A DNA stretch of 64,000 nt from Deltaproteobacteria bacterium (GTDB taxonomy: Bacteria; Myxococcota_A; Polyangia; Fen-1088). Positions 5,679-21,306 of the stretch are shown one piece after another; the stretch's first letter is position 1; each line of letters begins with the position of its first letter. The notes below the pieces were generated by a model that was not told the DNA's origin, did not search any database, and was given only the letters and a program-made list of their open reading frames with translations. The position numbers were made by a program, and so were the translations under genes. Location: assembly GCA_033763315.1 (NCBI GenBank), contig JANRKS010000032.1, positions 512,001 to 576,000 of the forward strand. Reading direction: 5' to 3'.

Positions 5679-7088
5679 CTAGCGAAGCTTTTCCCACAGT
5701 GTTTTGCGGGCGATGCCGAGCAGGTCAGCGGCCTTGGCGCGCTTGCCGCCGGTGGCGGTCAACGCACGGCCCAGGTATTCACGCTCGAATTCACGAACAG
5801 CCACAGCCAACGGTTTTAGTTCTCCCGAGGCGCCTTCCACGGCGGCAAACTGCGCTGAACGCGGTCGCACGGCTTCAGTGATGCTCACGGGCAGGTGATT
5901 GAAATCAATCGTCTGTCCGCCAGCGAGCACCGTCGCGTGTTCGATGGCATGTTGGAACTCACGCACGTTGCCAGGAAACTCGTATTGCTTTAGAGCCATC
6001 CACGCCGCCGGCGTCAACGTTGGCAACTCGGAGCCGGGCGGCTTAAAGCGCTCGAGCAAGTGTCGCAACAGCAGCGGCATGTCGCCGGGACGTTCGCGCA
6101 ACGGTGGCAACGGAATCTCGATGACGTTGATCCGGTAGAATAAGTCTTCGCGGAACGCGCCGGTCTTGGTCAGATCGCGCAGCGTACGGTGCGTGGCAGA
6201 AACGATTCGCACGTCCACCTTCACGGTGATGTTCGTGCCCAAGGGTTCAAACGTTCCTTCCTGTAGCACGCGCAACAGTTTTGCTTGTGCATGCAAAGGC
6301 AACTCACCGATTTCGTCCAAGAACAGCGTTCCACCATCGGCGGCTTTGAATCGCCCATCACGCTTCTTGACGGCGCCCGTAAATGCGCCACGTTCGTGGC
6401 CGAACAACTCAGCTTCGATCAGGTTCTCAGCCAGCGCGCCGCAGTTAACGGCGACGAACGGCCCCTTTGAACGCGGGGAACCTTCGTGGATCATGCGCGC
6501 CACAAGTTCTTTGCCGGTGCCGCTTTCGCCCGTGATGAGGACGGGGGCATCGCTTTGCGACACCATGCGTACCATCTCCTTCACGCGGCGGATGGGGGGC
6601 GACTCACCGACCAACGTGGTGCCGCCCGTCACCTGACCGGTGGCCAGTTGCGACCGGATCTGTTCAAGTTCGGACTTGAGTCCCAGGTGTTCGCTGATAT
6701 GCGTCAGCTGAATGAGAAGTTCTTCGATGTCGAAGGGCTTGGTCAGATAGTCGTAGGCGCCTTCCTTGAGGGCAGCCACGGCGTCAGTGACCTGGCCATA
6801 AGCCGTCATCATGATGACCTTCGTTTGAGGGGATTCACTACGCACGTGTCTTAGAAGCGATAGCCCCTCAACTTTGGGCAGTCTCACATCGGTAATCACA
6901 ACGTCGAAGACATTGTGTTCCAGTTGCCCGAGGGCCTCAGACCCATCGGCAGCCGTTTCGACCACGTATCCTGCTTCTCGCAGAGCGTCCTCAAGGACAC
7001 CTCGTAACTCAGGTTCGTCGTCAACCAATAGGATTCGCAATGATTTCCCCTGCGCTTCGGCGGGTTGAGAGAGTTTTGCTTGGGTCAT
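5679..7088 (-). CDS. sigma54-dependent response regulator (NtrC/AtoC-type enhancer-binding protein)
   Basis: REC (ILLVDDE...DVRLP...YLTKPF), GESGTGKE, GAFTGA, FPGNVRE, Fis-type HTH; ATG 7088. Confidence 0.95.
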   Translation of the reverse strand: MTQAKLSQPAEAQGKSLRILLVDDEPELRGVLEDALREAGYVVETAADGSEALGQLEHNVFDVVITDVRLPKVEGLSLLRHVRSESPQTKVIMMTAYGQVTDAVAALKEGAYDYLTKPFDIEELLIQLTHISEHLGLKSELEQIRSQLATGQVTGGTTLVGESPPIRRVKEMVRMVSQSDAPVLITGESGTGKELVARMIHEGSPRSKGPFVAVNCGALAENLIEAELFGHERGAFTGAVKKRDGRFKAADGGTLFLDEIGELPLHAQAKLLRVLQEGTFEPLGTNITVKVDVRIVSATHRTLRDLTKTGAFREDLFYRINVIEIPLPPLRERPGDMPLLLRHLLERFKPPGSELPTLTPAAWMALKQYEFPGNVREFQHAIEHATVLAGGQTIDFNHLPVSITEAVRPRSAQFAAVEGASGELKPLAVAVREFEREYLGRALTATGGKRAKAADLLGIARKTLWEKLR

Positions 7089-7180
7089 TCTGTCGGCCTC
7101 GATGATACTTTTCGGTAACGCCAGGTACCGATGTGGTAACACTCTGAATCCGTTCCGGCGCGTTTGCCGGCGATTTCTCC

Positions 7181-7196
7181 TGGCACACCGCTTGTA
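7181..7196 (+). promoter_or_regulatory. sigma54-type element (CHASE kinase)
   Basis: TGGCAC-ACCGC-TTGTA. Confidence 0.6.
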
Positions 7197-7198
7197 AC

Positions 7199-7214
7199 TA
7201 CAAGAACCGTGCCT
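7199..7214 (-). promoter_or_regulatory. sigma54-type element (activator gene), face-to-face with the previous element
   Basis: Minus strand AGGCAC-GGTTC-TTGTA. Confidence 0.55.
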
Positions 7215-7259
7215 TTTTTCTCCCACTCCCACGTCGATGACGTCGCGCATGAGGAACGC

Positions 7260-9050
7260 GTGCCGCGTATCAGTTCCATCCGGCGTGGCCTTCTGCGTGA
7301 GACATGGCTGGCGTACGTGGTGTTTGCCGCCGCGCTTTTGATCACCGTACTTTTGACCAGCGCGTTTTTGAAGGGCGAGCAGGAGCGCCAGGCCTTGGAG
7401 GCACAGAAGCAGGCCATCGACGTTCAGAACCGCTTCGCGACGAGGATGGGTCGCAATATGACAGCGCTCGTCGGCGGCGCGGCGTTGTTTGGTGTGGATG
7501 CCCGTTTGACGCCCGCGGAATTCAGAAATTTCGCTCGCAGTTTGCAGCGCTTCGGCGCCCTTGATGGCGTTCTCGCGTTGGGCTTTTGCCCCCGCGTGAC
7601 GGCGCAAGAGCTGCCGGGGTATTGGGCAACCGTCAAACAGCGCGTGCCCGGCTTTCACGTGTGGCCCGAGGACGCTCGCGATGAGTACTTCCCTGTTGAG
7701 CTCATCGAACCGTTGACGGAGCAGAACCGTAAAGTGATTGGCTACAACATGCACGCCGAAGCCGTGCGCAAAGCAGCCGTGGAGTTCGCCAGAAAGCATG
7801 GTGAGCCCGCCGCTTCGGGACGCTTGTCGCTGTTGCAAGATCAAGGCAAACAGGGCCGCTTCGGCTTCGTAATCTATGTGCCCATTTATCAGCGCGGCGT
7901 AGAGCCGGGCTCTGCCGACGAGCGTGGCGCCGGGCTGGTGGGGTTCATCTTTGCGGCCTACCGGGCGGATGATCTTGTTGCTTGGATCCTATCCGCTGCC
8001 GAGCGCGCCACTTTCGCCGTGCAGTTGTTCACGGGGCCGAGGGACGCCGCCGAAGCGCTTTACCAAAGCCCTTTGCCTGAAGGCAGCGAGCTGATTTCAA
8101 GCCGCTCACTCGGAGTGGGCGGGCGCGATCTAACCTTGAGCCTTTACCTTAAACCACACGCGGTCTCTGCTTGGGATTCGGAGTTGATCGTCAGCGCTGC
8201 GTTGGGCGTCATCGTTAGCTTGCTGTTATTCTTGGTGCTGCGAACTCAAGTGCAGGCTCGGCTCAAGGCTGTCACAAACGCGGCTCATCTGCGCGAAGCG
8301 CGAGCGACGGCCGTGCGCAACTTGCGCGCGCGTGAAACCTTTCTGTCTGTGGCGTCGCATGAATTGAAGACGCCTTTGACCGCGTTGCAGCTGCAGGTTG
8401 ATTCGCTCGCCATGTCCTTGGCGAACGCTGCGCCCGTGGACCTTGATCGACTGCGCGCTCGCGCCGACAACATTGGCCGCCAAACAAAAAGGTTGGGGTC
8501 ACTGGTTGAGGATCTGCTGGATGTCTCGCAGGTCAGCGCCTCACCCCTATCGCTGCAGTTGGAGAACACAAGCCTTGTACCACTGATTCAAGACGTCATA
8601 GATTCATTCGCTACGGCGGCGAAGCAAGCGCACAGCGAGGTGCGGTTCGAGGCCGATGACGATGCCTTGTCCGGTATGTGGGACCGGCGACGGTTGCAGA
8701 AGGTGATCTCGACCCTGGTGTCGAACGCCATCAAATACGGTTGTGGACGTCCCATCGTGCTGACTGCCAAGCGAGAAGACGCGAACGCAGTGATCACTGT
8801 GAGCGACCATGGCATCGGCATCGCGCAAGCGGATCAAGAGCGCATCTTCGGCCGGTTTGAACGGGCCGTTTCGCCAAAGCACTTCGGCGGCATGGGCCTC
8901 GGCCTTTGGATTGCTCGCGCGATTGTGGAATCCATGGGCGGAACGATTCGCGTGGCCAGCTCACCCGGCGCGGGCGCCACCTTTGTGGTTTCGTTACCAG
9001 CAGCCTCGGCCGATTTGCAGGCCTCAGGCGATGCGATGGGCGCCGCGTAA
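7260..9050 (+). CDS. CHASE-domain sensor histidine kinase
   Basis: TM-CHASE (IEPL..N..VIGYNM, GFVIYVPIY)-TM, SHELKTPL, NAIKY, DHGIGI, GMGLGL; GTG 7260 after GAGGA (start uncertain). Confidence 0.9.
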   Translation: MPRISSIRRGLLRETWLAYVVFAAALLITVLLTSAFLKGEQERQALEAQKQAIDVQNRFATRMGRNMTALVGGAALFGVDARLTPAEFRNFARSLQRFGALDGVLALGFCPRVTAQELPGYWATVKQRVPGFHVWPEDARDEYFPVELIEPLTEQNRKVIGYNMHAEAVRKAAVEFARKHGEPAASGRLSLLQDQGKQGRFGFVIYVPIYQRGVEPGSADERGAGLVGFIFAAYRADDLVAWILSAAERATFAVQLFTGPRDAAEALYQSPLPEGSELISSRSLGVGGRDLTLSLYLKPHAVSAWDSELIVSAALGVIVSLLLFLVLRTQVQARLKAVTNAAHLREARATAVRNLRARETFLSVASHELKTPLTALQLQVDSLAMSLANAAPVDLDRLRARADNIGRQTKRLGSLVEDLLDVSQVSASPLSLQLENTSLVPLIQDVIDSFATAAKQAHSEVRFEADDDALSGMWDRRRLQKVISTLVSNAIKYGCGRPIVLTAKREDANAVITVSDHGIGIAQADQERIFGRFERAVSPKHFGGMGLGLWIARAIVESMGGTIRVASSPGAGATFVVSLPAASADLQASGDAMGAA

Positions 9051-9650: not shown

Positions 9651-9666
9651 TGCAACCGCCGTTCCA
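9651..9666 (-). promoter_or_regulatory. sigma54 promoter (hemerythrin)
   Basis: Minus strand TGGAAC-GGCGG-TTGCA. Confidence 0.7.
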
Positions 9667-9783: not shown

Positions 9784-9799
9784 TGGCACGTTTCTCGAA
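9784..9799 (+). promoter_or_regulatory. sigma54-type element with weak -12 (treY)
   Basis: TGGCAC-GTTTC-TCGAA. Confidence 0.4.
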
Positions 9800-9816
9800 A
9801 GGGACGCGTGGCCATT

Positions 9817-12645
9817 ATGGCTGATTCCGCTCCCGTACTCACGTATCGCATTCAAGTGAGCCGCGCCTTTGACCTAAGGCGTGTTGGCGATCTGCTTCCG
9901 TACTTGCATAAGCTCGGCGTCAGTCACCTGCACCTTTCGCCGCTGTATAAAGCGATGCCCGGTAGCAACCACGGTTACGATGTTATCGATCACAGTTGTT
10001 TGAACCCCGACGTTGGCACCGAAGAGGAGCTACAAAAAGTGGCTGAAGGCGCCCAACAACTTCAGATGGGGTTGATCTTAGATTTGGTGCCCAATCACAT
10101 GTGCATTGCCAGCGCTGCGAACCGGCAGTGGCAGGATGTGCTCGAAAACGGCCCCAGCGCTGCAGCCGCAGCCTTTTTCGACATCGATTGGGGGCCCCCG
10201 AAAGCTGAACTTGTGAACAAGGTGCTGCTGCCGATCCTTGGCGCTCAATTTGGATTCGAGCTTGAGCGTGGCGCCCTGGAAGTGATCGAGCAGGCGGGTG
10301 TGTTTGTGTTGCGGTACGGCAGTTTGATGCTGCCGTTGGCGCCGCCCTCCTGGCAGCTCATCCTGCAGCCGTGGTGGAAAGCTGTGCGGGCCCAAGAGGG
10401 CCAAGATGGTCCCAACGCCATCGAAATTGAAAGCATCCTGCGCGCCGTCACCCACTGGCCCACAGACGGCGGCCCGCGCGCGTGGCGACACGAACGCGAG
10501 GCGATGGCACGCCGGATCACGCAGCTGTGCCAAGACGATCAGGTGGCGCAAGAGCTTGAACGGCAGCTGGTGCTCATCAACGGCACGCCTGGCGAACCTT
10601 CGAGTTTCGATCGGTTGGAACAGCTCATCGGCCTGCAACACTATCGTTTGGCGAACTGGCGGGTGGCGGCGCACGAGATCAACTACAGGCGCTTCTTTGA
10701 CGTGGACGCGCTCGCAGCGATCCGCGTGGATGACGACGCCGTCTTCGATGCGGTTCACGCCTTACCGCAGCGTTGGCTCGCCAACGGATGGCTCAGTGGT
10801 TTTAGAATCGATCACGTGGATGGCCTTCGCGAGCCACAAGCGTACCTAGATCGGCTGCGCGACCTTGTGCCGCACAAGACGCCTTACGTGGTCGTGGAGA
10901 AGATCTTAAGCCCCGGCGAATCACTGCCTGATTCTTGGAGCGCTTCGGGAACCACCGGATACGAACACCTGGCCTCTGTGGCGAATGTGTTGGTGGACGT
11001 GGAGCAAGCGTGGCGCGTGCGCGAAGCCTGGCGAACGCTGACAGGCTCCGAGGCGGGCTACAAGGACGTGGCTTATGAATCGAAGCGCCTCATCTTGGGC
11101 AGCAGCTTTGCAGGTGAGCTCACTGTGTTGGGGCGACGTTTGGACCGCTTGTCAGAGCAGCATCGTTACAGCCGTGACTTCACCTTGGCGAGCCTTACGG
11201 ATTGCTTGCGCGAGGTGATCGCTTGCTTTCCCGTGTACCGAACCTATGTCACCGAGAGCACGAGCGACGTCACGGATCGCGACGCCCGCATGATCACGCT
11301 GGCCCTCGAAGAGGCGCAACGACGCAACCCCGTCACAAACCAAAGTCTGTTCGATTTCATGCGCGACGTTTTGATGTTGCGTGATCCGGGAGGGCTGACC
11401 GCCGATCAAATGCAAGAGCGCAAGGACTTCGTGCTGCGCTTCCAACAGCTGACCGGACCCGTGACGGCCAAAGGCCTCGAAGATACGGCGTTCTATCGAT
11501 ACTTTCCGCTTTTGGGGCTATCTGAGGTGGGCGTGAATCCAGACCACCTGGGCGTGTCTGTGGATGAATTTCATTTCGTGCAGCGGTTGCGCGCCGAAAC
11601 GCGCCCCAAGGGCTTATCGGCGTCGGCCACACACGACACCAAGCGGGGCGAAGACGCTCGGGCGAGGCTGTGCGTTTTGTCGGAGATTGCCCCCGAATGG
11701 GTGCAAACTGTGTTGCGCTGGCGGGAGCTGAACGCGCCTTTGCGAGTTCACCACGCAGGCAAGTATGCGCCCGACGACATCACCGAGACTTTCATTTATC
11801 AATCGCTGCTTGGCGGCTGCCCACCGGAAGGGTTGGATGTGTCCGGTGATTTTCCCTCGCGCTTTAAGGCTTCGTTGCATAAGGCCCTTGCGGAAGCCAA
11901 ACGCGACACAAGCTGGACCAACCCTGACAAAGCCTATGAGGCCGCGATCGATCGCTATGTTGACGCCTTATTGTCCGAGGAGAAGAGCACCGCTTTCTTG
12001 GCCGATTTTCGCGCCTTCTTTCTGCGCCTGAAAGTGCCAGGCGTGCTCAACAGCTTGGCGCAGGTGATCTTGAAATTTGCGTGCCCCGGCGTACCCGAGC
12101 TTTACCAAGGCACTGAAGGCTGGGATCATTCCTTCGTCGATCCGGACAACCGTCGTCCCGTGGCTTTCGAAACTCTGGGCGCGCGGTTGTCAGCCGTTGC
12201 CGACGCCCCTGTGTCTGCCGAACAGGTGGCCATGTGGCTGCAGAAGCCGGACGATGGCTTGATAAAAATGCTGGTCACCCAGCGCTGCGCGCAGCTTCGG
12301 CACCAGCGCGCGGCTGCGTTAGAAAGCCACCGCTATGAAGTTTGTCGCGTATGGGGGCCACTGGCTCGTCACGTGGTGGCGTTTGCGCGTGGCTACCCGG
12401 GGCAAAGGGTGATCGCCTTGGTGGGGCGGTTGTTTGGCGAGCTGTCGAAAGACGGAGTGGTGCCGACGGGGAAGGCCTGGTCTGAAACGTTCGTGGATGT
12501 TGCCGAACTTATACCGCAGGCTCGGTACGTGAACGTGTTAACCGGCGAAGCGATCATCCCTGGAACGAACAATGGTGCCCAAGGTTTCGCTCTTGACCAA
12601 ACCTTCACGACGCTACCGTTCGCGCTCATCCGCGAAGAAACGTGA
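9817..12645 (+). CDS. treY: Malto-oligosyltrehalose synthase (GH13)
   Basis: TYRIQ, GSNHGYDV, DLVPNHM, INYRRFFD, RIDHVDGL, VVEKIL, ATHDTKRGED, PGVPELYQG, VDPDNRRPV. Confidence 0.95.
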   Translation: MADSAPVLTYRIQVSRAFDLRRVGDLLPYLHKLGVSHLHLSPLYKAMPGSNHGYDVIDHSCLNPDVGTEEELQKVAEGAQQLQMGLILDLVPNHMCIASAANRQWQDVLENGPSAAAAAFFDIDWGPPKAELVNKVLLPILGAQFGFELERGALEVIEQAGVFVLRYGSLMLPLAPPSWQLILQPWWKAVRAQEGQDGPNAIEIESILRAVTHWPTDGGPRAWRHEREAMARRITQLCQDDQVAQELERQLVLINGTPGEPSSFDRLEQLIGLQHYRLANWRVAAHEINYRRFFDVDALAAIRVDDDAVFDAVHALPQRWLANGWLSGFRIDHVDGLREPQAYLDRLRDLVPHKTPYVVVEKILSPGESLPDSWSASGTTGYEHLASVANVLVDVEQAWRVREAWRTLTGSEAGYKDVAYESKRLILGSSFAGELTVLGRRLDRLSEQHRYSRDFTLASLTDCLREVIACFPVYRTYVTESTSDVTDRDARMITLALEEAQRRNPVTNQSLFDFMRDVLMLRDPGGLTADQMQERKDFVLRFQQLTGPVTAKGLEDTAFYRYFPLLGLSEVGVNPDHLGVSVDEFHFVQRLRAETRPKGLSASATHDTKRGEDARARLCVLSEIAPEWVQTVLRWRELNAPLRVHHAGKYAPDDITETFIYQSLLGGCPPEGLDVSGDFPSRFKASLHKALAEAKRDTSWTNPDKAYEAAIDRYVDALLSEEKSTAFLADFRAFFLRLKVPGVLNSLAQVILKFACPGVPELYQGTEGWDHSFVDPDNRRPVAFETLGARLSAVADAPVSAEQVAMWLQKPDDGLIKMLVTQRCAQLRHQRAAALESHRYEVCRVWGPLARHVVAFARGYPGQRVIALVGRLFGELSKDGVVPTGKAWSETFVDVAELIPQARYVNVLTGEAIIPGTNNGAQGFALDQTFTTLPFALIREET

Positions 12646-12657
12646 CGTAGAGGTACC

Positions 12658-12673
12658 CGGCACGAATCATGCT
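12658..12673 (+). promoter_or_regulatory. sigma54 promoter (nucleotidyltransferase)
   Basis: CGGCAC-GAATC-ATGCT; supports ATG 12702 as the true start. Confidence 0.65.
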
Positions 12674-12701
12674 TATTGAGCTTGGACGCAGGAGGTCCCT
12701 C

Positions 12702-13640
12702 ATGAAAGCAGTGCCAGCCAAGACGCGAAACCTTTGGGCGATTGTTTTAGCCGGCGGCAAGGGCGCTCGCATTTCGCCCTTGAGTCGCAAGCTTATTGGG
12801 CAAGAGGTGCCGAAGCAGTACCTGCCTTTGTTGAGCTCGAAACGCAGCCTTTTGCAAGAAACCCAGGATCGCTTGGCGTCGTTGGTGCCGCAGGAGCGCA
12901 CCGTGGTGGTGGTGGCGAAAGAATGGGCTTCGTTGGCCGCCAAGCAGCTGCAAGAATACCCTGGTGTGCGCATTGTGCCCCAGCCTGCTGATCGCGGCAC
13001 CACAGCCGGGATCATGTTGCCGCTGTGCCACGTGTTGGCGCATGATCCTCAGGCCGAGGTGCTCATTTCACCGTCGGACCATCACATCGAGCGCCCCGAA
13101 GCCTTGTATGAAGCTGTCGCGCAGATTCGCCAAACAATTCAAGAGTCGCCGCGTGACATCGGCATCTTGGGCATCAAGGCCGAGCACCCCGCGACTGATC
13201 TGGGGTGGATTGAGCCTGGCCAACCTGTGCAGAATTGCCGACGCATCAAAGGGTTTATAGAGAAGCCCGACAGCGAAACGGCGCGCGCGCTTTATAAGGC
13301 ACAGGCCCTATGGAATACCATGATCTTAATGGGCCGCGCCTCGTCTCTTTGGGCCACCGTGTTGCGTGGCAATGAAACGATTCCCTCTTTGTTCGAGCCT
13401 TACATTCAGCAGTTGGTGCAATCGCCATTGTCCGCTGTGGGCTTTGCTGATCGCATTTACGAGCAGATGCCCAACGTTGATTTCAGTTCGGGCGTGCTTG
13501 AGAGGGCCGACAACTTGTTTGTGGCAACCTTAGAGAGGGCAGGGTGGTTCGATTGTGGAACCCCTGAGCGCTTGTTCGACTGGCTACGGCGGACACCAAG
13601 CAGCGACAGTCCGTTTCGGCGTTTGATGGATGCCGCATAG
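12702..13640 (+). CDS. Mannose-1-phosphate guanylyltransferase-like sugar-phosphate nucleotidyltransferase
   Basis: AIVLAGGKGAR, PKQY, PSDH, GWIEPG, FIEKP, WFDCG; SD AGGAGG. Confidence 0.85.
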   Translation: MKAVPAKTRNLWAIVLAGGKGARISPLSRKLIGQEVPKQYLPLLSSKRSLLQETQDRLASLVPQERTVVVVAKEWASLAAKQLQEYPGVRIVPQPADRGTTAGIMLPLCHVLAHDPQAEVLISPSDHHIERPEALYEAVAQIRQTIQESPRDIGILGIKAEHPATDLGWIEPGQPVQNCRRIKGFIEKPDSETARALYKAQALWNTMILMGRASSLWATVLRGNETIPSLFEPYIQQLVQSPLSAVGFADRIYEQMPNVDFSSGVLERADNLFVATLERAGWFDCGTPERLFDWLRRTPSSDSPFRRLMDAA

Positions 13641-13649
13641 CCAAAGACG

Positions 13650-13963
13650 TGTGCGTCCTCCGCTACAGGTGTCACCACTTCGTAGCGTCAGGAGCTCTAA
13701 GCGCAGTCGCTGACCATTCCACGCGCAGGCTCATCTGGAGGGGCCCATCCCCCCGACAAAACACTGGGCCGTCGCCTGCGTCATCGTGTTTTCGAAAACG
13801 CTGGACGCCGAGGCGGTGCACCCCGGCGTCCTCACTCAAACCCGTCGCCTCTACCCCACCGCCAAACTCCCACGCCACCCAATCCCTTTACACCGCCCAG
13901 CCACACCTACCGTACCCCTGCACCTAACCCCCAGTCCTCCCCATCACCATCCCCGTTTCGTGC
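13650..13963 (-). ncRNA. Candidate sigma54-dependent G-rich small RNA (boundaries inferred)
   Basis: Gene-free gap downstream of a sigma54 element; G-rich, C-poor 5' ~110 nt, then several inverted repeats. Confidence 0.45.
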
Positions 13964-13973
13964 CCTCCTAATA

Positions 13974-13989
13974 TTCAAGTCACATGCCA
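13974..13989 (-). promoter_or_regulatory. sigma54-type element pointing into non-coding gap
   Basis: Minus strand TGGCAT-GTGAC-TTGAA. Confidence 0.6.
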
Positions 13990-14099
13990 ACGCAACGCCC
14001 GCCGTTTGGGTCGACAAAAGCCGCTCATTCAACGGAGCGCCGTCCCAAAGCCGTTACGCGCATCGTGGTTCGGTAACGTCGTGCACCTCCGCAGATCGT

Positions 14100-14115
14100 C
14101 GGCATACGCCCTGCA
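14100..14115 (+). promoter_or_regulatory. sigma54 promoter (tspO-tamA-tamB)
   Basis: CGGCAT-ACGCC-CTGCA. Confidence 0.6.
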
Positions 14116-14133
14116 CATACGATTGCCGAGGCA

Positions 14134-14640
14134 ATGAAGACAGTGAACAACACATCGGAAACAACTCGCAAACGCAGCTGGGTTTGGGGCGCAGCGGCCG
14201 TGGTGGGAGCCACCATCGGAGCTGCTGCTTTGGGTGCAACAACGTCTCGCCCCGGCTTGTGGTATCACCAGTTAAGGAAGCCGGTGGGAACACCACCCAA
14301 CGCCGCTTTTGGTCCGGTGTGGACTTTGCTCTACATGGGCATCGCCTATGCCGGTGTCCGTTTGGTGAGAGCCCCCGCCTCACCTGAGCGCAGCAAAGCG
14401 CTCGCGTGGTGGAGCACACAGCTCGCGCTCAACGCCGCTTGGTCGCCAGTGTTCTTCGGCGTGAAACAGCCAGCGGCCGCGATGGTGATCATCGGTGCTT
14501 TGGTGCCTGCGATTGCCGCCACAACAAATGCCGCCCGTAAGGTGGATGGTCCCAGCGCCGTGTTGATGTTGCCGTACTTGGCGTGGACCTCGTACGCAAC
14601 GTATTTGAACGCCGGCATCTTGCTGAAGAACCACGTCTAG
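14134..14640 (+). CDS. tspO: TspO/MBR family protein
   Basis: WYHQLRKP..TPP..FGPVWTLLY, LNAAWSPVFFG, PYLAWTSYATYLN. Confidence 0.95.
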   Translation: MKTVNNTSETTRKRSWVWGAAAVVGATIGAAALGATTSRPGLWYHQLRKPVGTPPNAAFGPVWTLLYMGIAYAGVRLVRAPASPERSKALAWWSTQLALNAAWSPVFFGVKQPAAAMVIIGALVPAIAATTNAARKVDGPSAVLMLPYLAWTSYATYLNAGILLKNHV

Positions 14641-14642
14641 CA

Positions 14643-16730
14643 ATGCCTGCTGATCCCTCGAAGCCCGCTCGACGTGGCTGCGGCCCCGGCTTGCTCCTCG
14701 TCCTCCTTACATTGACGCTGATTGGCTGTGCCCAGAAGCAAACGCCTGCGGGGCCGCAGGTGAAGGCGCTTGATATCGAGGGCAACAAGGCCGTAAGCGA
14801 TCGCGCGATCAAAAAGAAGATCGTCATGGAAGCCACGGGCTGGTGGCCCTTTGCAAAGAAAAAGTACTTCGACCCTGTTAGCTGGCACAAAGACAAAGAG
14901 CGCATCAAACGTTTCTATGAAACCCAGGGGTTTTATAAGGCGGAAGTGAGCGTGTCTGATGTGCCGCCCGCCACCCGGCGCGACACGAACGAAAAGGTGG
15001 CCTTGCAAGCCAAAGTGGCTGAAGGGCCACGCTTCGTTTTGGAGACGTTGGCGATCGAAGGCCTCGACGGCGTGCCACCCAAGGTGAAAACGCTTCTGAC
15101 CGAGGATCTTCCTTTGGTGAAGGGCAAGCCGTTCACGGAGGCGGCGTGGGCCGAAGCGAAGAATTCACTGCTTCATGGTCTGCGCAACGCCGGGTTTGGC
15201 GAAGCCGAAGTCAAGGGTATGGCACGCGTGGATTTGGACACGAACGCCGTGCACGCGACGATCCGCGTGGCACCTGGAACCAGTTACAAGTTTGCCGCTC
15301 CTGTTGTGGTGCCCGAATCGCATCCCAAGGTGGATCCCGAATTCATCCGTCAACAGGTGCTGTTGGCCGCGCCTGTGGGTGCACCTTACTCGGAAGAAGA
15401 CGTGGAGGAAGCCACGAGCCGCGTGGCCGCGATGGGCGTGTTCTCGCGCGCGGAAGTGCACCCCGATTTTGAACACGCGTCGCAGGGCGCCGTGCCTCTG
15501 CGGGTGGAGACAGATACAGCGCCGTTTCACACGCTACGCCTGGGTGGTGGCGCGGGGTTTGATCAGGTGCGCAATGAGTTGAGGTTGATCAGCGACTGGT
15601 CCGATCGCAATTTCCTAGGCGGCTTGCGCATCTTGCGCATCCAATCGAAAGTGGGTTGGGCGTTCCTTCCAGACGTGCTTACCAACGTCAGAGGCGATAA
15701 GGCGCTCACCGTGCGCAGCGGCCCCATCGCAAGCTTGCGAACCGAGTTTGAACAACCCCGCTTTTTGGGTAAGCCATCGCTGAAGCTCACCGTGCGCGCG
15801 GAGGGTGAGCGTCAGTTGCAGGAGGCATTCAAGGCATCGACAGGTCGGGCCGGCCCCGAAGTGCAGTGGTTGATCCGATCCAAGTTGCGCTTGTCGGTGG
15901 GGTACACGCTTGATGGCTCTTACCTGGAGACGTTGGCGGCCATCAATCCGATCTCGGCACCGATCGTTTTAGGCTGCGACAATGAAGAAACAAAGTGTTT
16001 GCGATGGCTATCGTTCGTGTCCCAGCGCCTGGTTTACGATCGACGAGACAACCCCCTTGAACCCAAACGAGGTTTCTTTGCAGACTTCGAGCTTCAAGAA
16101 GGTGGCGGGCCCCTGCAAGGCAATTTCACGTATCTGCGCGCCATTCTTGATCTGCGGGTCTATGAGACGTGGGACGATTTTACGCTGTCGGCGCGCTTTC
16201 AGGCTGGATCGCTTTGGAACCCCGCCAACGATCCCGACAAGACGCCCATCTCGCAGCGCTTGTTCGCGGGTGGCGGTATGTCAATGCGCGGCTTCGGGTA
16301 CCGGCGATTCTCGCCGTTGTTGCCCGTGTTTGAAACACCGACCAGCGAGGACGCGGCGTACGTGCCGATTGGTGGGAACGGACTTGTTTTGGGGGCGCTG
16401 GAGGCGCGCTATGGCATGACCGAAGTCCTGGGACTCGCCACGTTCTACGACGCCGCCAACGTCACGCACAAGGCGTTGACCGTGGAAGGCATCGGATCGT
16501 TTCAGCACGCGCTCGGCATTGGTTTGCGGTGGAAAACGCCCGTGGGGCTGTTTCGTTTCGATGTGGCCCGTCGCTTGCCGGGTGGCGTGGTGCGGGACGT
16601 GATTGGGCCCGAGGCGGCGCGCGTGGGCACGGTTAGCGAGGACAGCAGCTGCTTTGGCATCGGCGGAGGCGGCAGCACGCTGCCCGATGGTGCGTGCCAG
16701 ATCCACCTTTCGATTGGAGAGTCATTCTGA
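14643..16730 (+). CDS. tamA: Omp85 TamA/TamL-like protein (lipoprotein signal, POTRA domains, beta-barrel)
   Basis: LTLIGC lipobox, RFYETQGFY, FAGGGMSMRGF, GLRWKTPVG, C-terminal HLSIGESF. Confidence 0.85.
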   Translation: MPADPSKPARRGCGPGLLLVLLTLTLIGCAQKQTPAGPQVKALDIEGNKAVSDRAIKKKIVMEATGWWPFAKKKYFDPVSWHKDKERIKRFYETQGFYKAEVSVSDVPPATRRDTNEKVALQAKVAEGPRFVLETLAIEGLDGVPPKVKTLLTEDLPLVKGKPFTEAAWAEAKNSLLHGLRNAGFGEAEVKGMARVDLDTNAVHATIRVAPGTSYKFAAPVVVPESHPKVDPEFIRQQVLLAAPVGAPYSEEDVEEATSRVAAMGVFSRAEVHPDFEHASQGAVPLRVETDTAPFHTLRLGGGAGFDQVRNELRLISDWSDRNFLGGLRILRIQSKVGWAFLPDVLTNVRGDKALTVRSGPIASLRTEFEQPRFLGKPSLKLTVRAEGERQLQEAFKASTGRAGPEVQWLIRSKLRLSVGYTLDGSYLETLAAINPISAPIVLGCDNEETKCLRWLSFVSQRLVYDRRDNPLEPKRGFFADFELQEGGGPLQGNFTYLRAILDLRVYETWDDFTLSARFQAGSLWNPANDPDKTPISQRLFAGGGMSMRGFGYRRFSPLLPVFETPTSEDAAYVPIGGNGLVLGALEARYGMTEVLGLATFYDAANVTHKALTVEGIGSFQHALGIGLRWKTPVGLFRFDVARRLPGGVVRDVIGPEAARVGTVSEDSSCFGIGGGGSTLPDGACQIHLSIGESF

Positions 16731-20963: not shown

Positions 20964-20979
20964 TGGCACGAGACTTGAA
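20964..20979 (+). promoter_or_regulatory. sigma54-type element (glsB-like operon)
   Basis: TGGCAC-GAGAC-TTGAA. Confidence 0.6.
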
Positions 20980-21033: not shown

Positions 21034-21306
21034 ATGAATCCAGCGTACGGCATCATCATGTGGGTCATTATTGGGGCATTGGCAGGTTGGATCGGCAGCA
21101 AGATCATGGGTACCGACGCTCGCCAAGGTGGTTTGGCCAACATCATCATCGGCATCATCGGCGCTGTGGTTGGTGGCTTCATTGCCCGCGCTGTCTTCGG
21201 TGATAGTTCGTCAAACAACGGATTCATCGCCAGCACGGTTGTGGCGCTGTTGGGCTCCATCATCGTCATCGGCATTTGGAAAGCGTTGTCACGACGCACA
21301 GCCTGA
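21034..21306 (+). CDS. GlsB/YeaQ/YmgE family stress membrane protein
   Basis: WVIIGALAGWIGSKIM...NIIIGIIGAVVGG; SD AGGAG. Confidence 0.92.
   Translation: MNPAYGIIMWVIIGALAGWIGSKIMGTDARQGGLANIIIGIIGAVVGGFIARAVFGDSSSNNGFIASTVVALLGSIIVIGIWKALSRRTA

Follow-up and report, generated by a model that had tools for sequence, protein, structure and literature searches.

A predicted sigma-54-dependent, G-rich and C-depleted non-coding RNA divergent from tspO in a stress-like promoter island of a myxobacterial genome

We consider here a 493-nucleotide (nt) gap (13641-14133) between an NTP_transferase gene (12669-13640, plus strand) and tspO (14134-14640, plus strand) in the genome of a Deltaproteobacteria bacterium, a myxobacterium assigned to the Polyangia. 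Coordinates are those of the window, the whole 64,000-nt stretch of DNA that was analysed (contig C32:512001-576000), which belongs to a metagenome-assembled genome (MAG) of 7.63 Mb in 40 contigs, with 60.6% G+C and a completeness of 90.85%. With a confidence that we would place about midway, we propose that this gap holds the gene for a stress-induced non-coding RNA of about 169 nt, which would be made from the minus strand by sigma-54 RNA polymerase with the help of an enhancer-binding protein, under control common with tspO. The proposal is built on sequence features, on conservation in one relative, on the regulon around the gap and on the lack of a conserved open reading frame (ORF), and from these the firing of the promoter, the ends of the transcript, the identity of the activator and the action of the RNA are predicted. 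A preliminary description of the region had taken it for a small RNA (sRNA) arm of a sigma-54 regulon that might work as a sponge through GGA repeats. The first part of that idea survives, in the form of a minus-strand non-coding unit with a conserved promoter, 5' end and hairpin, no conserved ORF and an upstream site pair common to the regulon; the GGA sponge does not.

The starting point was a minus-strand TGGCAT-N5-TTGAA motif said to point into a gene-free gap, and it is indeed present at 13989-13974 as TGGCATGTGACTTGAA. Measured against the sigma-54 criterion TGGCAC-N5-TTGCW, the TGGCAT element, with its -24 GG, and the ten-base spacing fit, and the -12 element deviates, reading TTGAA with GA in place of GC. 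Sigma-54 transcripts usually start 12 nt from the -12 element, a convention that puts the predicted start at 13963; the predicted end, taken from a terminator-like hairpin and a U run, lies at 13795, giving a transcript of about 169 nt (13963-13795, minus strand). By the same conventions the RNA of the relative described below would be about 205-210 nt long. The transcript opens with a conserved 5' segment (13963-13935), a candidate for a specific contact or seed, continues into a G-rich, C-depleted body (13934-13846) in which composition is kept and sequence and length are not, and closes with the hairpin (13831-13803) and UUUU (13798-13795). The 3' half assigned to the RNA in the preliminary description, 13650-13794, is unconserved and probably lies outside it.

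A 2034-nt metagenome contig, L067, carries the same three-part order of NTP_transferase (3-839), gap (549 nt) and tspO, with a TspO protein that is 79% identical, and we aligned the two gaps and took identity block by block. Neutral blocks fall to 36% (13990-14044) and to 42% (13641-13789; 47% without gaps). The sigma-54-like motif, by comparison, agrees at 12 of 16 positions, all four differences lying at Y or N5 positions, and the first 29 nt of the putative transcript are 79% identical (23 of 29 columns), a level equal to that of the flanking coding DNA (78%); the hairpin region reaches 73% without gaps. A further block between the RNA and tspO promoters, 14045-14095, stands at 59% against the 36% neutral level. 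In the G-rich body only 45% of columns are identical and 22 are gaps, and still the tract from predicted start to hairpin in L067 is 50% G and 8% C over 163 nt. The extreme skew of the tract begins at the predicted start site and stops at the hairpin. Short contigs of a roughly 97%-identical strain from a river metagenome cover 13806-13962: every difference (13861, 13887, 13888 and a 2-nt deletion at 13902) lies inside the body, and the 5' segment is unchanged.

L067 keeps the element, and it was not seen upstream of tspO in the six other relatives examined. Among 41 genomes, seven including this one encode tspO, and in the other six the gene has other neighbours, with no skewed tract and no strict motif beside it. 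A search with the gap DNA across the 41 genomes returned three non-self matches, all fragments of 35-46 nt; no homologue of the gap was found in the 40 relatives. Across 89 genomes of the family (88 others), the same search gave 11 non-self matches of 23-36 nt and no element; 10 of these 11 were inspected (all but L201), and each covers a hairpin arm only, in a long unskewed G+C-rich stretch that reads as coding. A collection of genome contigs contained no TspO above 46% identity, and a collection of metagenome contigs contained one useful tspO locus, L067, among 44. Within this genome, a paralogue search found the 5' block and the hairpin to be single-copy, and there are no tandem repeats in the region examined.

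The composition of the predicted transcript is extreme. The G-tracts and scarcity of C noted in the preliminary description are borne out: positions 13963-13846 on the minus strand contain 65 G and 11 C in 118 nt (55% G, 9% C), and GC skew reaches -0.78 at 13850-13949. Over 100-nt intervals genome-wide, the 99.99th percentile of absolute skew is 0.56, and eight merged regions reach at least 0.65. Among these eight the tract is the most skewed apart from two homopolymer-like stretches at contig ends, and no properly assembled part of the genome is more skewed. Those two stretches (C8:190,750-191,077 and C19:1-240) consist of homopolymer-like C or G/T runs; they are probably assembly or sequencing artefacts, and are misleading for scans of skew or quadruplex potential.

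What follows from this composition, and what does not, can be stated fairly precisely. The earlier count of about ten GGA trinucleotides is accurate (10 in 13963-13650), and the G-rich body has 5, against 5.7 +/- 1.7 expected from its composition, so that GGA is not enriched; runs of three or more G behave likewise, with 9 observed and 8.8 expected. With GGA at the level set by composition, and with no CsrA found in the genome, a sponge for a Csr-type protein is not supported. A G-quadruplex RNA and a base-pairing regulator, the other two modes suggested in the preliminary description, stay candidates. The canonical motif (four runs of at least three G, loops of 1-7 nt) occurs neither in the predicted RNA of the window nor in that of L067; with loops of up to 12 nt there are two motifs here and one in L067, in differing places. 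By G4Hunter, both species score 2.08 when 25 nt are taken, and the tract here scores 1.55 when 100 nt are taken, at or beyond the 99.99th percentile of the genome, and ViennaRNA with quadruplex energies places a quadruplex in the minimum-energy fold of both species, again at differing places; of same-composition shuffles, 92% and 73% also form one. High G-quadruplex potential is thus a consequence of composition alone. Because the quadruplexes differ in place, are non-canonical and are matched by shuffles, the conserved property is the composition together with a specific 5' end. With only 9% C, few Watson-Crick pairs are possible, and outside the terminator the RNA would be largely open or held by G-G contacts.

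The other end of the unit is marked by a terminator-like hairpin of 12-13 base pairs with a conserved G.U pair (13803-13831, arms 13803-13813 and 13821-13831), followed by UUUU (13795-13798) at 4 nt here and at 5 nt in L067. All four inverted repeats listed in the preliminary description exist, and the relative retains only one of them, GGACGCCG../..CGGCGTCC at 13803-13831, along with part of the adjoining TTTTCGAAAA; the remaining repeats fall in an unconserved spacer (13641-13794) between the predicted RNA end and the convergent NTP_transferase gene. The hairpin is oriented. Its predicted energy is -29.2 kcal/mol on the minus strand and -23.4 on the plus strand in the window, and -32.0 and -21.6, respectively, in L067, so that the minus-strand form is the more stable by 6-10 kcal/mol, owing to G.U pairs, one of which, present in both species, becomes an A.C mismatch on the plus strand. 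UUUU follows the stem on the minus strand in both species, and no such run follows it on the plus strand of the window. The skewed tract therefore sits exactly between a promoter-like motif and a terminator-like hairpin, each of them conserved and facing the minus direction.

The promoter-like motif does not stand alone, and its surroundings give the proposal its biological setting. The genome encodes one rpoN (a single Sigma54_DBD gene), and the relaxed motif [CT]GGCA[CT]-N5-[CT]TG[ACT][AT] occurs 325 times, or 2.1 times per 50 kb. Twelve of these occurrences are crowded into about 48 kb (C32:488,275-536,095; window -23,725 to 24,095), the densest cluster in the genome, the best interval on any other contig containing seven. 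The island motifs other than the RNA promoter lie 8-74 nt before ORFs, among them those for a BON-domain protein, a DUF2383 protein, a CBS pair, YtxH, a GlsB/YmgE-type Transgly_assoc protein, TspO, a CHASE histidine kinase and a PLD/VTT protein. Looser matches precede a hemerythrin gene (TGGAAC-N5-TTGCA at 9666-9651, minus strand), an operon encoding an alpha-amylase-family protein and NTP_transferase (TGGCAC-N5-TCGAA at 9784) and a Peptidase_Mx gene (23969, minus strand). We take this gene set to resemble the general-stress regulons of other bacteria, and the island suggests a general stress response run by sigma-54 in this myxobacterium. One member, a 90-amino-acid (aa) GlsB/YeaQ/YmgE-type gene (21034-21306, plus strand; Pfam Transgly_assoc), lies 54 nt behind TGGCACGAGACTTGAA (20964-20979), a motif identical to that of the RNA promoter at 14 of 16 positions.

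Within this island the GA at -12 is a local habit and not an exception, since the -12 elements of the cluster vary among TTGAA, TTGTA, TTGCT, TTGCA, CTGCA and TTGTT; the TTGAA type also precedes protein genes of the island, and it is retained in L067. A stricter test demanded, within 12-120 nt of the motif, a Shine-Dalgarno-like site, an ATG or GTG and an ORF of 60 aa or more that shows G+C bias at third codon positions. Of 85 TGGCAY-N5-TTG[A/C/T]W motifs in the genome 18 passed. The island accounts for eight of these 18, including four whose -12 element is of the TTGAA or TTGAT type, and the pass rate was 20-25%, compared with 6-14% for scrambled control motifs. Canonical sigma-54 promoters on C17, C7 and C6 that had appeared to be orphans were discarded as such, each of them preceding an ORF.

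Four divergent promoter pairs occur in the window (7181/7214, 9666/9784, 13989/14100 and 23969/24095), in keeping with the earlier remark that the RNA promoter diverges from that of tspO as in other pairs. The other three have protein genes on both arms, and 13989/14100 is the exception. Its tspO arm is CGGCAT-N5-CTGCA (14100-14115, plus strand; GG-N10-GC), 18 nt before the ATG, and its core, GTCGGCATACGCCCTGCA, is identical in L067; in two relatives at a greater distance, GG-N10-G[C/T] was likewise seen by eye immediately before tspO.

The interval between the two promoters contains a GTTAC-N15-GTAAC pair (14053-14077), a putative activator-binding site whose distance is 64-88 nt to the RNA promoter and 23-47 nt to that of tspO. 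The former distance is the more typical, being like that of the pair at the GlsB-family promoter (74-96 nt). GTAAC/GTTAC 5-mers occur at 0.61 per kb in the genome. Paired 5-mers were found within 220 nt upstream of eight of the 14 promoters examined, representing six intergenic regions; the pairs lie 23-100 nt upstream of island promoters, often between divergent ones, and are shown for the divergent pairs at 7181, 13989/14100 and 23969/24095, the site at 9666/9784 having been read by eye only. The GTAAC/GTTAC pairs probably form the site of an enhancer-binding protein. Individual sites are located at 7115, 7137, 9707, 14053, 14073, 20868, 20886, 24023 and 24050 of the window, with more upstream on C32, and by eye CGTTACG-like sites also lie upstream of tspO in three more distant relatives. 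The likely candidate for the protein that would bind the 14053-14077 pair is a receiver-AAA+-HTH_8 protein (Response_reg, Sigma54_activat and HTH_8; ORF 5679-7844, minus strand) encoded beside the CHASE histidine kinase. Its true start is probably near 7090 (~7100), because the long ORF overlaps the divergent kinase gene: ORFs 5679-7844 (minus) and 7164-9050 (plus) share about 680 nt, so that at least one of the two starts has been placed too far upstream. Between these two genes, at 7181-7214, opposite-strand sigma-54-like motifs overlap in a near-palindrome.

At the same time, a number of observations weigh against the proposed RNA gene, and they are best set out together. The RNA promoter lacks the canonical GC of the -12 element, and its motif taken alone is within chance (two matches in the window against 0.67 expected, with 16 of 100 shuffles reaching two); the case for more than chance comes from its conservation in L067 and its place in the promoter cluster. 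The body aligns poorly, and selection on it is accordingly argued from composition in two sequences only, just as the element itself is known from one other species and the short contigs of one strain. Folding of the whole RNA is no better than that of shuffles (z = +0.37 in the window, -0.49 in L067). In the hairpin, 11 of 12 pairs are unchanged and one shows a one-sided change (U-G to U-A), with compensatory double changes in none of the 12, a record of conservation and not of covariation; the U run has just four residues and begins 4-5 nt beyond the stem, which makes an imperfect terminator, one that a terminator consensus scan did not list. A search of sequencing runs returned no RNA run with the locus, only two DNA metagenome runs matching. 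Potential partners are equally elusive: the check for csrA and hfq proposed in the preliminary description found neither CsrA nor Hfq in the genome, which is 90.85% complete. An ungapped pairing scan of 5912 start regions gave its best score, 43, at a glycosyltransferase-like gene, where the maxima of 15 shuffled seeds were 33-41, and for 15 island start regions the energies spanned -11.7 to -26.7 kcal/mol, the background having a median of -22.3 and a 5th percentile of -29.2; no pairing target in either set rises convincingly above controls.

One alternative to a non-coding product is that the transcript encodes a small protein or leader peptide, from either an ATG 23 nt past the motif or the 68-aa ORF at 13878-13672 (minus strand). 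We think this very improbable. The start codon has some appeal, as several island promoters have one 23-25 nt after the motif, L067 has a TTG at 22 nt, and the first six codons, with that TTG read as M, are MVMGRT here and MVLGRK there; the two frames nonetheless run for 8 and 45 codons, respectively, the stop of the shorter one recurs in the independent strain contig, and a G run abuts the ATG where ribosome-binding-site spacing would be needed. The 68-aa ORF had been held out in the preliminary description as the product whose conservation would displace the RNA, and its conservation fails: in L067 the frame meets a stop just upstream of the hairpin and is unrelated downstream, leaving only hairpin-encoded residues in common, and in the window it would run through the hairpin. 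Its codon statistics, 0.20 per codon against a median of 0.225 for short ORFs, are unremarkable and do not exclude coding, so its rejection as a credible gene rests on the comparison of species. More generally, the earlier view of a gap without a credible coding sequence holds, no frame on either strand being conserved between the window and L067. In the window each of the three minus frames is interrupted by stops in the G-rich tract, plus-strand frames come and go from one species to the other, and the 2-nt deletion of the close strain, falling as it does in the body, bears against a reading frame. A search of 5.8 billion clustered proteins covered three ORFs, namely the 68-aa ORF, a 57-aa ORF of L067 (which contains the 45 codons from the TTG) and one of 92 aa on the plus strand; it returned no homologue for any of them, and none of the three contains a Pfam family.

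If the promoter is real, convergent transcription or the antisense RNA that it yields might act in cis on read-through transcripts of the operon at 9808-13640, by polymerase collision, a perfect G-rich/C-rich duplex or a stable R-loop, as a conditional end of the operon or an insulator before tspO. Although unlikely in our estimation, this is worth considering: the RNA gene converges on an operon that itself has a sigma-54-like motif (9784-9799), no terminator-like site lies on the plus strand in 13000-14700, and the sole extended complement of the RNA in the genome is its own single-copy locus. In addition, the RNA-binding domain of Rho is absent from search results for this genome, both genomes of the same genus and 16 of 18 genomes of the family, whereas 10 of 12 genomes from the other families of this class do have it; Rho may have been lost lineage-wide or have strongly diverged, and the lineage may need other means of ending transcripts. 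A purely cis role nevertheless leaves the conserved 5' block, the conserved hairpin and the keeping of composition over sequence unexplained, and read-through into tspO, a gene of the same regulon, would do no obvious harm. The apparent lack of a Rho domain cuts the other way for a further possibility, rather less probable still, in which the selected feature is the C-rich, G-poor plus strand, serving the operon as a 3' untranslated or Rho-loading-like termination region, or serving as a DNA element, and the minus-strand motif is silent or a mere binding site. Rho loading sites have just such a C-rich, G-poor composition, the C/G ratio is about 6 over 118 nt, and the operon ahead of the tract shows no evident intrinsic terminator. 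However, searches of this genome (90.85% complete) and of its genus turned up no RNA-binding domain of Rho, which weakens that explanation, and the motif, 5' block, hairpin G.U pair and U run are all minus-oriented, with a tract that begins 200 nt past the stop codon, exactly at the minus-strand start site. To a similarly low degree we credit an absence of function altogether, the tract being a lineage-specific compositional oddity such as a decayed insert or a mutation-biased stretch, whose conservation reflects only overlap with the tspO control region. The narrow distribution, the poorly aligning body, the lack of a structure signal and the failure to find partner proteins or targets would all suit that account. 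It is harder to reconcile with a motif, 5' block and hairpin that stand at 73-82% identity, against a neutral 36-47%, at 110-300 nt from the tspO promoter, or with an extreme composition that both species have kept despite insertions and deletions, in what is the most skewed assembled stretch in 7.6 Mb.

Returning to the proposed non-coding RNA, the general course of events can be sketched. Once an NtrC-type enhancer-binding protein has been activated, it would bind the GTTAC/GTAAC pair at 14053-14077, which is common to the RNA and tspO promoters, and sigma-54 RNA polymerase would read the RNA from TGGCAT-N5-TTGAA. Since the activator site is held in common, the RNA would be expected to rise with tspO and the rest of the general-stress-like island. 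Transcription would stop at the conserved hairpin and UUUU, to yield a product with a conserved 29-nt 5' end and a long, mostly unpaired body rich in G and poor in C. Such an RNA would most likely act as RNA through its exposed G runs: the 5' end would lend specificity, and the body would bind in bulk to C/U-rich RNA, to a factor that recognises G or to a ligand. Taken one step further, it might represent a new class of bacterial regulatory RNA selected for composition and not for sequence or fold, a bulk binder with over 100 nt of 50-55% G and under 10% C that is prone to form quadruplexes and is produced from a sigma-54 promoter when needed, though we regard this as a long shot. In its less bold version the bulk binder would be a sponge for C-rich RNAs. 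In its boldest version, no more than an idea by analogy, it would buffer free tetrapyrrole or heme beside the porphyrin-binding membrane protein TspO, a notion drawn from the activator site common with tspO in both species and from the hemerythrin gene in the regulon.

How does such an RNA compare with known ones? Rfam gave no gathering-score matches in the 64-kb window and, at E <= 10, only chance-level matches in the gap region and L067; this agrees with the earlier failure to see a match to Pxr, provided that Pxr is in the library. The kind of RNA is known, with Pxr, Qrr and GlmY as examples; the RNA proposed here matches no known family, and its extreme G-rich, C-depleted make-up is unusual. 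To our knowledge, no sRNA dependent on sigma-54 and an enhancer-binding protein has come from Polyangia-like myxobacteria, and none has this composition; the myxobacterial phylum has very many enhancer-binding proteins and almost no characterised sRNAs. CsrB and RsmZ, like the RNA here, are non-coding RNAs with many GGA triplets, but here GGA is at the expected level and, with no stable fold, not placed in hairpin loops, and no CsrA was found. CrcZ is sigma-54-dependent, CbrB-driven and a sponge involving Hfq and Crc. The Qrr RNAs of Vibrio are Hfq-dependent base-pairing RNAs, and the present case differs from them in that no Hfq was found in the genome and in having no sequence likeness to Qrr.

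The closest published parallel by origin is Pxr of Myxococcus xanthus and other Cystobacterineae; a sigma-54-dependent response regulator is encoded next to it, and in Myxococcus the RNA 'appears to be transcribed from an upstream sigma54 promoter' (PMC5568312). In both cases a myxobacterial, intergenic small RNA has a predicted sigma-54 promoter and enhancer-binding site near a sigma-54-dependent response regulator, as far as Pxr is described in that account (PMC5568312). In contrast, Pxr is reported as about 108 nt with three stable stem-loops (PMC5568312), where the RNA here is about 169 nt, G-rich and predicted to be stably folded only at its terminator hairpin, and the neighbouring genes differ. 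Because the published oligonucleotide probe for Pxr is G-rich (PMC5568312), Pxr must carry a C-rich run, and the G-rich RNA could in principle pair with C-rich RNAs such as Pxr. In the Qrr system as presented in PMC10162802, enhancer-binding proteins activate a sigma-54 promoter, and the synthesis of these RNAs by sigma-54 with a phosphorylated NtrC-type regulator, LuxO, bound upstream (PMC10162802, PMC11407668) is the arrangement we propose. GlmY and CrcZ, which likewise depend on sigma-54 with an enhancer-binding protein, work by titrating a protein and not by pairing; GlmY serves as a decoy for RapZ (PMC7073468). Unlike the present RNA, which has no repeat beyond composition, GlmY and CrcZ present defined structured or repeated motifs to a known partner. 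For the G-rich tract itself, a likeness is the cis-acting small RNA associated with the G4 upstream of pilE in Neisseria gonorrhoeae, where, according to PMC3547852, transcription from a dedicated promoter crosses a quadruplex-prone tract whose G-rich strand is the non-template one. That element is a single short canonical quadruplex for recombination at pilE, whereas here a tract of more than 100 nt with no canonical motif lies in a stress-like regulon and is followed by a terminator-like hairpin. The idea of heme buffering, finally, has a precedent in mitochondrial G-rich non-coding G-quadruplex RNAs that have been proposed to bind and buffer heme (PMC13311188); that G-quadruplex RNAs bind heme is established in other systems, and members of the TspO family bind tetrapyrroles (PMC4926414, PMC10598825). 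A G-rich RNA paired with tspO is reminiscent of them, but those RNAs are eukaryotic and organellar, and the link is an idea only.

Two neighbouring matters deserve brief mention. The operon at 9808-13640 (plus strand), which converges on the RNA gene, consists of a gene for a 945-aa protein with an alpha-amylase catalytic domain and the NTP_transferase gene, behind its own motif at 9784-9799; it could serve the stress regulon as a pathway for compatible solutes or glycans. As to the organism, its RpoN shares 72-75% identity with RpoN of MAGs that carry the labels Myxococcales, 'delta proteobacterium' or Proteobacteria, and 63-65% with RpoN of Haliangiales MAGs, which places it among the myxobacteria but not in the Myxococcus group. 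Its DNA occurs in river and freshwater sediment habitats.

If the RNA is real, it would be the non-coding arm of a sigma-54-driven, general-stress-like regulon, and a natural case of G-richness itself apparently under selection in a bacterial RNA. It would also allow RNA regulation to be studied in a lineage for which searches returned no Hfq, CsrA or Rho. The island merits attention whether or not the RNA proves real. Its 12 promoters with relaxed -12 sequences, its repeated GTAAC site and its pairing of a CHASE kinase with an NtrC-type protein point to a way in which sigma-54 may direct the general stress response of myxobacteria.

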